The position numbers were made by a program. Below are positions 50,401 through 62,400 of a DNA stretch of 64,000 nt, in pieces. Every line of letters begins with the position of its first letter. Position 1 is the first letter of the stretch. Source of the DNA: an uncultured bacterium (GTDB taxonomy: Bacteria; Verrucomicrobiota; Kiritimatiellia; RFP12; UBA1067); assembly GCA_902764415.1 (NCBI GenBank), contig CACWVU010000017.1, positions 65,133 through 129,132 on the forward strand, in the 5' to 3' direction.

Positions 50401-53400
50401 TGTATTATACCAAAAAATGAGGCTGCGCGGCGGCGCGGAGAGCCACTCCCCACTTCGACGCTTGGTAAGACTCCGGGAGGAGTCAGTCAGAACCGGGCAT
50501 GGACAGTCACTTGTCGCGCTTGAGCGCGTTGTCGCGGCGACAGAGCATCTGGAGGTTCTCGGGGACGGTCTTGCCGCCCTTCGACCAAGGCACGATGTGG
50601 TCGCCTTCCATCTCCTCGTACTCGAAGTGGCCGCCGCAGACGGGGCAGACGCCATTCTGCGCCTCGTACGCCGCGCGCTTCTCCTCGTCGTCGAACTGCC
50701 GGAGGTTCAGCTTCTCCTTCCTCGCGCCGTCGGAGAGGAGGTACTCGTAAATGCCCCTGTTGTTCTGGACCTCCTTGTCGGCCATCAGCGCGGAGACCCC
50801 GGCCTCCAGCTCCTTCGGGTTGTACGACCTCGCCGAGTACTCGCTGTAGAGCCTTCCCCACTCCAGCCCCTTCATCTCGCGCCGGTACTTCGTAAAGAGC
50901 GTCTCGATCCAGTTTATGACCTTCTGGAAGTGAAGCCACAGCTCCGTCGCCTCGCCGTCGCCCTGGTGGATCGCCATGTACTCCTCGATCGCCCTGTCCT
51001 TCGACGAGTTGATCATCCACTCTATCGCCGTCTCGAGGTACTCCTGCCTGTCCGCGCTTCCGTTCAGGTACGGCGCACCGATCTTCTGCGCGACACAGCC
51101 GGACTTGGAGAAGTAGCGCTTCGCGTCCGCGACCCACGGCCCGGAGTAGACCGCGTTCCGCATCTCCTGCGGCGTGAGCTTGAGCCCGGCGATGTTGATC
51201 ACCTTGAACCAGTCGATCTTCTCCGACTGCTCGCCCTCGCAGAAGTAGACCATCAGCTCGTAGTCGAGGAACTTCCGCTGGACGTCCTCCGGCTGACGGT
51301 GGAAGTACTTCGCCGCCAGGTCGAGCTCTCCCCACGCGAAGTCGCCGTTCGCGTACTGGCAGAGCGAGATCGTCCGCTGCTGCCCGTCCATCACCTCGAA
51401 GGTGCCGTCGGGGTTCTTCACCCAGTACATGACGTTGAGCGGGAAGCCCTTCATCACCGTGGAGATGACGGCGTTGCGCTCCTTCTCCTTGTAGACGAAC
51501 TCGCGCTGGTAGGCGGGGCGGATGTCGAGGACGCCGCCGCAGCCGCGCACGCCGCTCTCCGCGTCGTCGACGTAGCCCTCGACAAGGTCGCGTATCTTGA
51601 TTCGATGGAGCTCGATCTTCATGGCGATTCAGCCTTTCTCTTTTTGACAGGATTTACAGGATTCACAGGATTGTGTTGCTTTCGCTACTTGGAGTTCTGG
51701 AATTTTGGAGTTCGCGAGGCATGAAAGCTCCATATCTCCAAGACTCCGAAACTCCCAGTTGCGAAAGCAATTCTATTTGCGCCCTATGCATTGGAAATTA
51801 TCCACGTCGGCGGATAAGGATACGCCCATAAGTCCGCTTTCCACCAATGACACTACACCCACCTCGGTCTTCTGGATGGATATGGTATCCCACTTCTCTC
51901 AACGCCTCTTTCGGCGCACTAGCCCGAGTATTGCCAGACGCCTGCCATAATATTTCAAACTGCTCTGGGCAATACTTGTCCATGAATGTTATCGGCACAC
52001 CCATTATACCCTCATAATCGTATGGGATGTCAGCAGATTTTGAAACCTCAATAGCATCGTAGTTGTCGTATTTCGGGAACTCCTCTGGCGTATACTTCTT
52101 GTATAGTGGAAGCTTTTCATGTCGTTTCGCGATGTCCATATTCGTAAACCACATTACACCAGAAACTCTTATCATACCCTCACGATGATCTCCAGCCGTC
52201 GCTACATCTTTGTATCTCGACTTGAAATGCGCGGCATTGCCTCTAAACCCAAAACCAAGCCAAATCTTGTTTTCCTTGAAAAGCGGAAATATCTCTTTGT
52301 AGGTGATGGCATTCTGATTCCCGATGATAAGGAACTTCTTGCCGTACTTCACGAGCTGAGCGACATACTCGCGGAAGAGGGAGAACGGCGGATTGGTGAC
52401 GACAATGTCTGCTTCCTTCAGGATCTCGATGCATTCCTCCGAGCGAAAGTCGCCGTCGCCCTTCAGCACGCGGACGCCCACCTCGTCGTCGTCAAGAACC
52501 ATGTTGCCGTTCTTGTCGCCTTCGTAGACCTGGCAGATCGCCCGCTCACAGTCGCCCTGCGAGAAGAGGTCGACGTCCTGGCTCTTGTAGCAGGTCGCTA
52601 TCAGCCGCTTCAGACCCAGCTTCTCGAAATTCTCGACAAAGTACTTGAAGAACTCGCTCTGCCGCGGATCATCGCAGTTGCAGAGGACGACCTTGCCCTT
52701 GAAATGCGCCTTGTAGTGCCGCAGCTCGTTCTCGATGTCAACGCGCTGGGTGTAGAACTCGTCCTTCTTCGCCCGCTTGGCCGCCGTAAGTGCCGCGTTG
52801 TCGCCCATTTCGTGCCTCAGTGTCCACCGCACCATCAAGTGAGATTATGGTACGGATGAAATTTCAGTCCTGCGCATATCCGTCGCAAACACCGTATTTG
52901 TGCATAAAAAGGGCGCATTTCCATTCATGCACTCTTGGGTAGCCCTACCACAGGCTAGTTTGGAATACATGAAGAGGAAATGCGCCCAGATGGGCGCATC
53001 TCTGCTTACATGCCGTTCCAAACTTGAAATAGTGGTAGTATTTCCCAAGAACGACGTGTAGCGTTGATGCTACATTGAAGAACGTCTGGCGGGGCGTTCG
53101 CGGCGGCCGCGCATGGCGCGGGGAGGCCTGACTACTTGCCCGTTTTCCAGACTATCACCCCGCGTCGCGTCTTCCGCCTCGCGAGATGAGTGAATTATAC
53201 CAAAAATCCCCACCGTGCGGGGCGAGGATTCACATTTCCCACAACTCAAACCCTCAATCAAAGAAGGTGGATGCTGAAGGCTAATGAAGATAGACCGCTG
53301 TGCCGGCACTACAGAGGACGGCGAGCGCGCGCTCGTGCGCGGGATCAATGCCGCGGACGGCGAGGCGGGCGAGGTTCCAGCGGCGGTTGAATAGCCAGCC

Positions 53401-59400: not shown

Positions 59401-62400
59401 GGGTTTTCGCCGGCAAGGCGCGCGGCAAGTCCGTCCGAACCGGGGCCGCCGAGGGAATGCGGGTCGAGCGGATCGGTGCCGTGGACAAACAGCTCGTCGT
59501 AGTCGGAAAGGCCGTCCTCGTCGGTGTCGGCGAGGTGCGGGTCGGTGCCGTGGACGCGGATCTCGTCGACGGTGGGGATGCCGTCGCCGTCGGGGTCGGG
59601 GTCGTCGAGGTCGGAAGGATAGAGCGGGTAGAAGGAGACGGAGCAGCGGGACTGCGGGACTGCGGAACCGGGGAACAGCGCGATGGCTGGATTGGCGGAA
59701 CTGCCGAAGACCGCCGAGGCGAAGAGGTTGGTGTCGGGGGCGGCGACGCGGGTCAGGTCGTAGCGGTAGACGAACGCCCCGGTGCCGGAAAGCTCGACCT
59801 GGAAGGAGACGGGGTTCGCGGCGGCGCGGCCGAGGAGCGCGTTTTCCCAGGTGAACTGGAGGGTGTTGGACGGCGTGAGGTGGTGCCAGAAGCGGCTCGG
59901 GCGGGCGGACTCGGGCAAGAGGCGCCAGTTGGCCTCGGGGACGACGCCCAGCGGCGCGTTCACTGGCAGGAACGAGGCGAGCGGCTGGCCGCAGACGGCG
60001 CCCGCGAAGGCGTCGACGCGCCCGGAGGAGTCGACGCAGAACGCGGAGGCGGAGTTGGTGCCGACCGGGAACGACCAGCCGCCGGCGTCGAACGCGATCC
60101 AGTCCGACGAGGCGCCGCGGATGCGCCAGCGCCGCGCCTCCTCCGCGCCCGCCGGCATCGCGAACGAGCAGGTCTCGTTAGTCCTCGCCAGCGAAACCGC
60201 GTATCCCCTTCCCACGTCCTCGGCGGTTATGCCGGCCTCGACGCCGCCGGACCGCAACAGCACGATTCCGCTGTTCTCCAGTTGGTTCGTGGGCTTGGTG
60301 GCGGCGTAGCGGGTCATGACAAGCACCGCCAGCAGCGAAACGACGACGTCCGGAAGCCTGTGCCTCCAGAATCGCCACCTCTGCCGCCATGTCTGCATAA
60401 ACCAAACTTGACTGCTCACACTTGCCTTACGCTGGTGGTGGCTGCGAGGCTGTGGTCACAGGGTCACTCCGTCCTTGAAGATGGCGATGCCGCGGTCGCC
60501 GGCGAGCTCGTTCTTCGCCGGCTCGCCGGAAGCCACCGCCACCACCTTGCGCGCGAAGGCGTCCACGTCGGGCGCCGACATCGCGTTCCAGTCGATCCAG
60601 TTCGGCTTCGCCGCGGCAAGCGCGTCGTTGGAGGCTATCTTCAGCGTCGGCACCACGCAGCCGAACGGAGTGCCGCGGCCGGTGGTGAAGAGGATGAGGT
60701 GCGCGCCGGCGGCCGCGAGCACGGTCGAGGCGACGAGGTCGTTGCCCGGACCGGTGACGAGGGTGAGCCCGCGGCGCCTCACCGCCTCGCCGTAGCCGAG
60801 CACGTCCTCAACCGGGGCGCTGCCGCCTTTCTGGACGCAGCCGAGCGACTTGTCCTCCAGCGTGGTGATGCCGCCGGCCTTGTTGCCGGGGCTGGGGTTC
60901 TCGTAGCAGGGCTGGTTATGCGCGGCATAGTAGCCCTTGAAGTCGTCGATCATCCTAACGCAGCGGTCGAACACCTCGCGTGTGCGGCAGCGCTTCATCA
61001 AGAGCGTCTCCGCGCCGAACATCTCCGGCACCTCGGTGAGCAGCGTCGAGCCGCCGCGCGCGGCGAGCCAGTCGGAGAAGCGGCCGACGAGCGGATTGGC
61101 GGTGAGGCCAGAGAAACCGTCCGACCCACCGCACTTGAGGCCGACGACAAGCTCCGAGACCGGCACCTCGACGCGCTCCTTCGGGCGCGCCGCATCGAGC
61201 TCCTTGACGAGCTCAAGCCCGCGCTCGTATTCGTCGCCCGGATCCTGCGCCCTCATGAAGCGGATGTTGAAACTCGTGGTTCGTGGTTCGTGGTTCGTGG
61301 TTCGGGCAAATGTTCCAGAGGCAGAGTCGAAAGACTTGGGGTCGAAGCCAAGGCGCGCCGCGAAGCTCTCCAGCGTGTTGTTCTCGCAGCCGAGCGACAC
61401 CACCAGCACGCCGCCGGCGTTGGGATGGCGGCAGAGCCGCGCGAGCAGGTTGGCGGTGGTCTCGTGGTCCTGCCCCAGCTGCGAGCAGCCGTAGGGATGG
61501 GTGAGCGCGACGCCGCCGCAGGACAGCGCGAGGCGCTCGGCGAGTCGGTTAACGCAGCCGACGAGCGGCACCACCCAGATGTCGTTGCGCACGCCGACGC
61601 GGCCGTCGGCATGGCGGTAGGCCTTCATCGTCGGCGGCTCGACCCGCTTGAGGTCGGCGAACTCCGGCTCGTAGCTGTACTCAAGGACCTCGCCGAGGTT
61701 GGTCGCGAGGTTGTCCACATGGACGTGCTCGCCCTTCGCGATCGCCTTGGTCGCGTGCCCGATGGGCATGCCGTACTTGACCACGTCCTCGCCCGCGGCG
61801 ATGTCGCGGAGCGCGTACTTGTGCCCGTCTTCGCGCACCTCGACGTTGTCGGATGGATGGATTACCATGTCGGTCAGAAGAACGTCATCTGCCCCGGACA
61901 CTCCGAGAGCCGCCGCCGGGGCTTGCGGACGGTCTTGGCGGCGTTTACGTCGATTTCGTTGGCCTCGAGGTTGCGCAGGATCTCGCCGGCGCGCGCCACC
62001 ACCTCGGGCGGCAGGCCGGCCATCGCGCCGACGTGGATGCCGAAGCTTTTCTCGGCGACGCCGGGGGCGATGCGGCGGAGGAAGACGATCCTGCCGCCCT
62101 CCTCCTTGACCTTGACGGTGAAGTTCTTCACCCCGCTGAAGGCGTCGGCGAGGTCGGCGAGCTCGTGGTAGTGGGTGGCGAAGAGAGTCTTCGCCTTGGC
62201 GCTCGCCTTGCCGTGCAGATACTCGGCCACGCTCCAGGCGATGGAGATGCCGTCGAAGGTGGAGGTGCCGCGGCCGATCTCGTCGAGCACAATGAGGCTC
62301 TTCGGGGTGGCGTTATTGAGGATGTTCGCCGTCTCCTGCATCTCGACGAGGAAGGTCGACCTGCCGCGCGCCAGGTCGTCGCCGGCGCCGATGCGGGTGA

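Follow-up and report, generated by a model that had tools for sequence, protein, structure and literature searches.

A predicted Sec-exported serine hydrolase with mosaic C-terminal cassettes and exported partner proteins in Kiritimatiellia: a candidate polymorphic effector-immunity system

The window analysed here is a stretch of 64,000 nucleotides from an uncultured bacterium of the class Kiritimatiellia (Verrucomicrobiota; RFP12; UBA1067), covering positions 65,133 to 129,132 of contig CACWVU010000017.1 (assembly GCA_902764415.1). It carries an operon, with all genes on the minus strand, in which a large exported protein ending in an α/β-hydrolase domain is followed by two paralogous exported partner proteins (P1 and P2), a 58-amino-acid (58-aa) open reading frame (ORF), a further exported protein (Q) and a terminator. 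In related loci, near-identical N-terminal regions are joined to strongly diverged C-termini, the gene directly downstream follows the hydrolase and not the N-terminal region, and surplus partner genes are mostly intact beside broken hydrolase genes. Taken together, these features give roughly an even chance that the locus is a Sec-exported polymorphic effector-immunity system resembling the Maf system of Neisseria, with an undescribed delivery region and an undescribed partner fold.

The operon and its products

The elements of the locus are listed below. Residue numbers of the large protein count from GTG 60419; L-numbers denote related loci fetched from other genomes, and P-numbers such as P0004 denote homologous proteins.

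56055..60398, minus strand: large exported protein, 1447 aa from ATG 60398 (longest ORF 1454 aa from GTG 60419)
60297..60398, minus strand: N-terminus, residues ~1-41 by sequence reading, with a basic stretch, one hydrophobic segment (VVVSLLAVLVMT) and A-A↓TKP
58740..60242, minus strand: conserved N-terminal region, aa 60-560, 95% DNA identity to L086
58614..58775, minus strand: Cys-rich linker, aa 549-602, modelled with a predicted local distance difference test (pLDDT) score <50; gappy and of low identity across the family
57810..58577, minus strand: beta-rich middle region, aa 615-870 (607-870 in the model), without a Pfam family
57695..57821, minus strand: mosaic junction, where backbone homology (95%, L086) stops at 57695, cassette homology (80%, L088) runs from 57821, and GC drops
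57150..57809, minus strand: region CT1, aa 871-1090, with the calcium-loop motif DVNRDGSIDDGD, preceding the hydrolase (hidden Markov model, HMM, match E 8e-86)
56058..57149, minus strand: predicted serine α/β-hydrolase domain, aa 1091-1454 (Abhydrolase_6, invariant residues, lipase profile match)
55102..56058, minus strand: P1, exported, 318 aa, ATGA-coupled to the large gene; its L088 counterpart travels with the hydrolase
55021..55067, minus strand: candidate remnant of a displaced hydrolase tail, last ~15 codons (...SVIEKGGLR*), ATGA-coupled to P2
54053..55024, minus strand: P2, exported, 323 aa, paralog of P1
53880..54056, minus strand: 58-aa ORF, an in-frame fragment of the hydrolase domain
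53281..53883, minus strand: Q, exported, 200 aa, with a DxDGDG loop
53198..53222, minus strand: intrinsic-terminator-like hairpin and T run from the terminator scan, ending the operon

The locus had originally been predicted to be a translationally coupled operon of five ORFs closed by a terminator, and this layout is borne out. On identical public contigs gene callers give the same five genes, with products of 1447, 318, 348, 58 and 200 aa; the ATGA stop/start overlaps between the large gene and P1, between P2 and the 58-aa ORF and between the latter and Q can be read directly; and the terminator scan recovers CCCCGCACGGTGGGG followed by ATTTTTGG at 53222-53208. The predicted frame of 1454 aa for the large protein is present, but its start has to be moved: because DNA homology to a copy at another chromosomal locus (L086) begins exactly at ATG 60398, where the gene callers also place the start, this codon is more likely to be used than GTG 60419. 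For P2, ATG 55024 is the most likely start codon; AAAGGGGG with a GGGGG ribosome-binding site lies before it, and the product then has the predicted ~323 aa rather than the 348 aa of the gene callers. Base composition changes abruptly along the operon. GC content is ~0.70 over the first two thirds of the large gene, falls to ~0.55 from ~57700 (residue ~906), stays at 0.43-0.50 across both P genes, and is back at 0.65-0.69 in the 58-aa ORF and Q.

The large protein, to which the public protein P0001 is 100% identical, begins with what is probably a Sec signal or signal anchor, with a putative cleavage site behind its hydrophobic segment. Most family members (P0011-P0108, first 150 residues) have two hydrophobic segments with a basic loop between them, and behind these come the conserved site A-x-A↓(S/T)KPG and a stretch rich in Gly; the first segment is absent from the window protein and its closest relatives. 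The two-segment form may be an extended signal region with a targeting function. Within the conserved N-terminal region lie TSP3-type calcium-binding repeats (aa ~275-330; Pfam TSP3_bac, E 2.4e-7) and a beta sandwich (aa 374-543; pLDDT 80-90 in an AlphaFold2 model). The model of aa 255-1454, built from 62 family sequences, has a mean pLDDT of 85.8. Foldseek aligns it best with chains of PADI6 and PAD4 (~300 columns, E 1e-9 to 3e-7) and next with arrays of immunoglobulin (Ig) and Fn3 domains. The PADI6/PAD4 match probably runs through the N-terminal Ig-like domains of these proteins, and we would place it in the middle region and CT1, although the aligned query residues are not given in the output. 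Pfam and NCBIfam searches with the five products and their sub-regions returned only TSP3_bac, Abhydrolase_6 and sub-threshold matches to CarboxypepD_reg and DUF900; in the large protein, they found no domain of type V, VI or VII secretion systems (T5SS, T6SS, T7SS) and no Rhs, PAAR or DUF1020 match. PADLOC gave no match for the large protein, P or Q (P standing for P1, P2 and their homologs).

The C-terminal domain looks like a catalytically competent serine hydrolase, because, scanned by itself, it exceeds the Abhydrolase_6 threshold (27.7 bits, cut-off 26.3) and its catalytic residues are invariant. The same family is matched by 31 of 35 relatives. The predicted nucleophile elbow VMAHSLGNMVV is indeed present, and at least 97% of 115 aligned family members share its invariant H-S-L-G-N core. 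The nucleophile would be S1177 in AHSLG (56871-56903), the oxyanion residues H1101-G1102, the histidine H1429 in WLHSD and the acid D1247 (or E1207), so that a triad of S1177, D1247 or E1207, and H1429 can be proposed. Invariant across the family are H1101-G1102, S1177 (AHSLGN), E1207, D1247, R1249 and H1429-S1430, and along the sequence the oxyanion HG, the nucleophile elbow, the acid and the histidine follow one another in the canonical order of α/β-hydrolases. The proposed assignment to DUF900- or PGAP1-like proteins fared less well. DUF900 remains below its curated cut-off of 20.5 bits, both in the whole protein (11 bits, E 0.29) and in the domain alone (13.1 bits), and is weak in 20 of 35 relatives (best 3.3e-5); PGAP1 has no Pfam match with either the whole protein or the domain. 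A PDB sequence search with the single C-terminal region gave nothing useful. The family profile reaches pancreatic lipase-related protein 2 (E 0.0074) from the oxyanion HG through the GHSLG elbow, and the model, with its alternating beta and alpha elements, has weak Foldseek matches to esterases (E ~1e-3).

P1 and P2 are paralogs, as predicted, with 33% identity over 320 residues (E 2e-55), and like Q each of them has a signal peptide by sequence reading. The all-beta model of P1 (pLDDT 91.8) consists of a signal peptide, a transthyretin/CarboxypepD_reg-like sandwich of ~80 aa and a beta domain of ~200 aa. CarboxypepD_reg (PF13620) scores 25.2 and 23.8 bits on the N-terminal ~80 aa of P1 and P2, against a cut-off of 32.3, and several P homologs carry precomputed PF13620 matches. 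The sandwich resembles domains of 80-100 aa, 3e8v and the SusC NTE domain 9hfj among them, with a template-modelling (TM) score of ~0.73, normalised by target length. The ~200-aa C-terminal domain had been described as unrecognised and remains so in the PDB and BFVD, where Foldseek finds no match above TM ~0.27, normalised by query length; a profile of P matches nothing among PDB sequences. Homology of the paralogs to lipase chaperones or substrate-binding proteins, which would speak against immunity, was looked for, and no likeness to Lif, tail-fibre chaperones or substrate-binding proteins was found in Pfam, NCBIfam, the PDB or Foldseek searches of the PDB and BFVD.

The two remaining products turned out to be different from what had been proposed. 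The 58-aa ORF, taken at first for an operon component, matches columns 101-152 of the 367 columns of the family hydrolase HMM (E 9e-19), a segment just past the nucleophile elbow. Its DNA is 96% identical to an internal piece of the L086 hydrolase (13609-13761), and it is also found in L087 with 95% aa identity. It thus appears to be an orphan remnant of a hydrolase and not a component of its own kind. The identity of Q, originally listed as the last gene of the operon, follows the N region (r 0.57) and not the hydrolase (r 0.02). A gene of the Q family precedes the large gene in 22 loci and follows it in 10, and Q seems, from this co-variation, to be a conserved accessory of the constant part of the system. 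Pfam and PDB searches with Q found no match; its profile gives only an EF-hand-like loop (E ~0.1).

A family of mosaic alleles with linked partners and orphan modules

In a large protein collection the large protein has >380 homologs, which are unnamed or "hypothetical", and the few taxonomic labels among them are Kiritimatiellae. Because most full-length relatives align end to end (35-50% identity), the domain architecture is fixed. A relative is encoded in 332 stretches of species-representative genomes, as found by a scan that was seeded on the AHSLGNM motif and therefore cannot reveal other C-termini. Most named records are metagenome-assembled genomes (MAGs) labelled Kiritimatiellae, Lentisphaerae or Verrucomicrobia, many records being unclassified; where titles give a sampling site, it is the gut or rumen of goat, sheep or buffalo, or a Hadza human sample. 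L011, L066 and L070 lie in bins labelled Clostridiales, Eubacteriales and Limosilactobacillus gorillae, labels which probably reflect binning contamination. Single MAGs can contain at least four loci, among which the hydrolases are 28-66% and the P proteins 20-54% identical. When 1.84 billion representative proteins were scanned with the hydrolase domain, at least 451 clusters (at 50% identity) were obtained at E <1e-30 and 1239 at E <1e-10, and the domain always formed the very C-terminal end, the longest of these proteins having 3407 aa. This module also occurs on other N-terminal architectures, namely in a TSP3-repeat protein of 2345 aa in L093 and in a protein of >1940 aa in L095.

With HMMs of the N region, the middle region, CT1, the hydrolase (H), P and Q, 90 loci were annotated (89 fetched loci and the window). 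The arrangement that recurs among them can be written as [Q] N-Mid-CT1-H P (P)n (H'-P)n [Q], in which H' is a hydrolase fragment. The C-terminal fold is the same in all of the several hundred loci, and therefore the system appears to be polymorphic in allele and not in domain type.

The search for conserved N-terminal regions joined to alternative C-termini and downstream genes, which had been suggested as a check of the original prediction, was positive in identity profiles as well as in DNA breakpoints. Over aa 1-880, P0004, P0005 and P0006 share 92-100% of their residues with the window protein, but over aa 901-1454 the identity drops to 25-39%, whereas P0008 has the reverse pattern of windowed identity along the protein. 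These profiles speak against a C-terminus that is simply fixed across the family. The window operon itself is a mosaic of pieces with different closest relatives:

60398-57695, minus strand: backbone; L086, 95% DNA identity, the L086 copy lying at a different chromosomal locus
57821-55115, minus strand: CT1, hydrolase and P1; L088, 80% DNA identity, the L088 P protein being 86% identical to P1
54964-54089, minus strand: P2; L098, 84%, and L095, 89% DNA identity
54121 onward, minus strand: P2 tail, 58-aa ORF and Q; L087, 90% DNA identity

The first boundary, between backbone and cassette, coincides with the drop in GC content. Across the family, breakpoints cluster at the boundary between the middle region and CT1, at the start of the hydrolase and at hydrolase columns ~204-284; the largest peak, at columns 84-124, was attributed to the extreme conservation around the nucleophile elbow and discarded as an artefact.

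The identity of the first downstream P, compared over pairs of 48 non-redundant loci that are not phylogenetically independent, correlates with that of the hydrolase (r 0.84) and of CT1 (r 0.60), and much less with that of the middle region (r 0.29) and the N region (r 0.20). In 15 pairs with hydrolases at least 85% identical over the first 270 columns, the identity of P goes with that of the last 87 columns (r 0.89, p 1e-5) and shows no relation to the first 270 (r -0.03). Several pairs have hydrolases that are ~100% identical up to column ~280 and ~60% identical beyond it, and their P proteins are 42-50% identical. The comparison of L090 with the window is of the same kind: the large genes are 92.6% identical in DNA overall, and the proteins 94-100% over aa 101-1200 and 71-75% over the last 250 residues, with a P protein that is 36% identical to P1.

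Orphan modules are frequent. Downstream hydrolase fragments occur in ~15 loci, the window included, and often directly before a P gene. L010 carries the array P H' H' P' H' P H' H', L083 a whole orphan CT1-H-P, and L093 and L095 carry H'-P pairs. The two kinds of extra copies differ in their state of preservation: in non-redundant loci, 25 of 41 extra downstream P copies are near-full-length and 16 partial, while 21 of the 22 extra hydrolase copies are fragments and a single one is full. Intact extra P genes beside broken extra hydrolases are the strongest argument for a protective role of P over a role in assembly.

P2 in the window is a case in point. In L098, a P2-type protein (81% identical to P2) is encoded directly behind a full-length hydrolase that is 53% identical to that of the window, and in L095 a P2-like orphan (87% identical) follows an H'-P pair. 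Because the P2 type sits directly behind a different hydrolase in L098, P2 is by its sequence the partner type of another hydrolase allele, present here intact and without that allele. The spacer of ~80 nt before P2 ends with ...SVIEKGGLR-TGA, overlapping the ATG of P2, and resembles the ends of complete hydrolase genes (KVIEKGTLQ* in the window, DIVIEKGNLR* in L098). The spacer thus reproduces a normal hydrolase-gene end; therefore, P2 may formerly have been coupled to a hydrolase of its own, for which so short a match is moderate evidence. The idea that tandem paralogs are stacked immunity candidates fits with the occurrence of the P2 type in the first, cognate position elsewhere.

Genomic surroundings

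Related loci are found in variable regions beside restriction-modification, prokaryotic Argonaute (pAgo)/SIR2, Abi-like and other mobile or defence genes. In the window, the operon is directly followed (50507-52838, minus strand) by a type II restriction-modification pair of low GC content, in which an EcoRI-like MTase_II (E 6e-121) is combined with a GmrSD-N/HNH REase_II (E 4e-138). The pair, or its methylase alone, recurs upstream of the large gene in L005 (5574-7963) and between P and an orphan H'-P in L093 (9086-9952). It was considered as a component of the system and rejected, because its position and presence vary among loci. Elsewhere the neighbours are type I HsdR, RadC, Piwi (pAgo) with SIR2, T5orf172 and Bro-N (L087, 1-7487), HATPase, DUF932, Schlafen-AlbA and HNH_2 (L006, 1818-7315), and PapZ_C and ApeA_NTD1 (L088, 1023-2182 and 8763-10247). 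In L091 (2514-9690), from a Lentisphaeraceae MAG, a hydrolase-P-Q locus is followed by type III secretion-like genes for an SseC translocon family protein, a tetratricopeptide-repeat (TPR) chaperone-like protein and a secretin with a T3S N0 domain. A Flavodoxin_2/flavin mononucleotide (FMN)-reductase gene of 171 aa lies a few genes downstream of the array in L006 (14725-15240), L088 (10691-11206) and L093 (12885-13400) and may mark the far boundary of a conserved insertion site.

Two further regions of the window were noted. A second low-GC island at 8000-14000 (0.47-0.49 against ~0.68), probably a surface-glycan locus that came from elsewhere, contains a gene similar to NeuB sialic-acid synthase (9864-10877, E 2e-88) and one for a TIM barrel resembling sugar-phosphate isomerases (13221-14009), besides unannotated ORFs with lengths of 451 and 554 aa. 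At 39469-44121 (minus strand), an ORF of 1550 aa contains a ketosynthase-acyltransferase (KS-AT) linker, an acyltransferase and a C-terminal 4'-phosphopantetheinyl transferase, resembling polyketide synthases (PKS) or polyunsaturated fatty acid (PUFA) synthases. It was considered as a paralog of the large protein and set aside as unrelated and PKS-like.

Effector-immunity function and its alternatives

The hallmarks of polymorphic toxins are a conserved N-terminus with a swappable C-terminus, a specific downstream gene, orphan modules, sharing of one C-terminal module by different N-terminal architectures, several diverged sets in one genome and a location among mobile genes (Zhang et al. 2012; Jamet and Nassif 2015; PMC4436062, PMC3482391). 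The layout of the locus matches this published definition, which includes Sec-dependent members such as MafB. The sequences show the mosaics, the linkage, the orphans and the conserved catalytic residues; toxicity, immunity, substrate, topology and delivery are inferred, as follows. The constant part, made up of the Sec signal or anchor, the TSP3-containing N-terminal region, the beta-rich stalk and Q, would export and present the protein. The variable part, the hydrolase and the coupled exported P, would be exchanged as a cassette by homologous recombination between loci or strains. The hydrolase would act as an envelope-directed toxin against neighbouring bacteria and P as its cognate immunity protein in the periplasm or envelope, recognising mainly the last ~90-250 residues of the hydrolase around the loop of the catalytic His. 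An exported partner fits an envelope-acting toxin, as in Tle/Tli pairs.

Applied to the window, this scheme would imply that a low-GC cassette of at least CT1, hydrolase and P1 replaced the earlier C-terminus of a high-GC backbone gene. P2, which is equally low in GC, may have arrived with the same cassette. Earlier cassettes could have left behind the tail of ~15 hydrolase codons before P2, itself an orphan immunity candidate, and, from an older event, the fragment that now forms the 58-aa ORF. A bolder version, which we hold only tentatively and somewhat short of an even chance, is that of a phylum-specific interbacterial weapon with many hydrolase alleles that are not mutually cross-protected, a cognate immunity protein of a new exported fold, a non-canonical delivery aided by Q, and orphan P genes that serve as acquired protection.

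Among known systems, Maf (MafA, MafB, MafI) offers the closest parallel. Both have a Sec signal, a lineage-restricted N-region of unknown function with a variable C-terminus, a cognate gene directly downstream, many orphan modules, several islands per genome, an extra exported accessory gene and an outer-membrane route that is unknown (PMC4436062). The differences are that, according to Pfam, the window protein does not have DUF1020, that the phylum is another one, and that MafB C-termini are diverse nucleases and deaminases acting in the cytoplasm with small cytoplasmic immunity proteins, whereas the window family has one α/β-hydrolase and an exported beta partner of 320 aa.

Periplasmic Tli proteins carry signal peptides, and the partner proteins of the window share with them this feature as well as the occurrence of tandem paralogs. 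A serine α/β-hydrolase of the GxSxG type that is proposed to attack the envelope is likewise common to the Tle/Tli pairs, to Tox-ABhydrolase-1/2/3 and to the window (PMC3482391). Unlike Tle loci, the neighbourhoods examined here contain no VgrG, PAAR, Hcp or T6SS genes; the domain has no DUF2235 or other Tle-associated Pfam match and reaches only Abhydrolase_6, with DUF900 below threshold; a Sec-exported N-terminal region of 1000 aa is joined to the hydrolase; and P is unmatched beyond its sandwich. CdiA-CT/CdiI and Rhs-CT/RhsI systems resemble the family in their conserved N-terminus, swappable cassettes and truncated toxins with retained immunity genes (PMC4436062). They differ from it in that Pfam finds no TPS domain, filamentous haemagglutinin repeats, Rhs repeats or CdiB partner here, in that no sharply defined pre-toxin motif of the VENN kind is present, and in that breakpoints cluster at domain boundaries and inside a hydrolase of a single fold.

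Several observations weigh against the effector-immunity interpretation. No T5SS, T6SS, T7SS, Rhs or PAAR marker was found in the large protein or in the examined neighbourhoods, as the original prediction had already stated for T6SS, T7SS, Rhs and PAAR in the window; that the protein leaves its producer is a supposition. P, at ~320 aa, is large for an immunity protein and has many invariant polar residues, with the motifs RSRCK.D and NPTPNDTNLE, which could point to a conserved activity or docking function rather than to pure inhibitor specificity. Every C-terminus, among the aligned full-length proteins and the 90 loci scanned with HMMs, belongs to one hydrolase family, whereas classical polymorphic toxin families carry many unrelated toxin folds; of the polymorphic-toxin architecture originally proposed, allele swapping and orphan pieces are found, and diversity of C-terminal domain type is not. 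The linkage statistics come from related pairs, and block-wise correlation cannot separate co-evolution from linkage, because its values rise smoothly along the hydrolase toward the P gene; genes that are merely neighbours would also correlate most strongly at the 3' end of the hydrolase. Finally, the weak matches of the hydrolase (PDB profile E 0.0074, esterases E ~1e-3) make "lipase" a lead and not a result.

The alternative that survives best, although we consider it rather unlikely, is a variable surface enzyme or adhesin, whose C-terminal head would recognise a receptor or substrate such as glycans, host mucus or other cells, and which P would specifically help to fold, assemble or dock, as the Lif foldase does for lipases. 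In that case, exchange of cassettes and silent fragments would produce antigenic, phage-receptor or substrate variation, not killing. The constant hydrolase fold, the strong conservation of P with its invariant motifs and the lack of an evident delivery system are all compatible with such a protein; a CarboxypepD_reg-like domain, such as that of P, is often seen in surface proteins that handle glycans, what co-varies is the C-terminal subdomain together with the gene behind it, and partial downstream copies could be silent donor cassettes. The tips of phage and pyocin tail fibres also co-vary and are swapped with a downstream chaperone gene, and like them the C-terminal head of the window family co-varies with the next gene and moves as a unit. 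What speaks against the assembly role is, first, that a chaperone without a client should decay, and extra P genes are intact beside truncated hydrolases (25 full against 1 full). Second, P is all-beta and shows no resemblance to tail-fibre chaperones or to Lif, which is a helical steric chaperone; it is exported, no phage genes are adjacent, and Foldseek searches of BFVD with P find no match beyond the generic CarboxypepD_reg-like domain. Third, the head is an enzyme with an intact catalytic set, and the invariance of its catalytic residues argues that catalysis matters beyond binding.

An expanded family of nutritional exported esterases or lipases that would remove acyl groups from polysaccharides or break down lipids in the gut, with P and Q as accessory binding proteins and mosaicism as a by-product of recombination between paralogs, appears improbable. 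Kiritimatiellae are glycan degraders, many glycoside hydrolases and GDSL esterases are encoded in the window and in related loci, the family has multiple copies of one fixed architecture, and the hydrolase is structurally like generic esterases. However, near-identical N-termini joined at sharp breakpoints to ~30%-identical C-termini, truncated orphans and stacked intact partner genes do not suit this explanation; mosaics, orphans and a location in defence or mobile islands are hallmarks of conflict systems and not of metabolic operons, and no polysaccharide-utilisation genes are consistently linked in the neighbourhoods examined.

Least probable of all, and by a long way, is a polymorphic kin-recognition or adhesion receptor similar to TraA/TraB of Myxococcus, mediating contact of like with like; TSP3 repeats and a Cys-rich region do occur in such surface systems (see PMC12045341), and the hydrolase-P pair is allelically diverse and co-varying. 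Against it stand the invariant catalytic Ser, His and oxyanion residues, a variable part that is the C-terminal enzyme, and a Pfam scan without any sequence relation to TraA or TraB. Nor is an orphan structure known as a feature of tra loci.

If we return to the effector-immunity interpretation, the kind of system is a known one, consisting of a polymorphic effector, a cognate partner and orphans. New, if the effector reading holds, would be the delivery region, the diversification of one hydrolase fold into alleles, and the exported partner fold. Pfam, NCBIfam, PADLOC and the PDB contain no family covering the N region, the middle region, CT1, the C-terminal domain of P or Q, and a full-text literature search, supplemented by a looser one judged on the titles listed, found no paper linking the Kiritimatiellae phylum with polymorphic toxins.

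Kiritimatiellae are abundant in gut and rumen communities and almost unstudied. Should the locus encode effector and immunity proteins, competition among strains in these communities would depend on it to a major extent, and it would add a Sec-dependent delivery region, an accessory protein and an immunity fold to those already known. One enzyme fold with many alleles and matched partners would also provide a natural system for the evolution of enzyme-inhibitor specificity. Under the alternative explanations too, the cassette structure would define the part of the hydrolase that is recognised by its partner.

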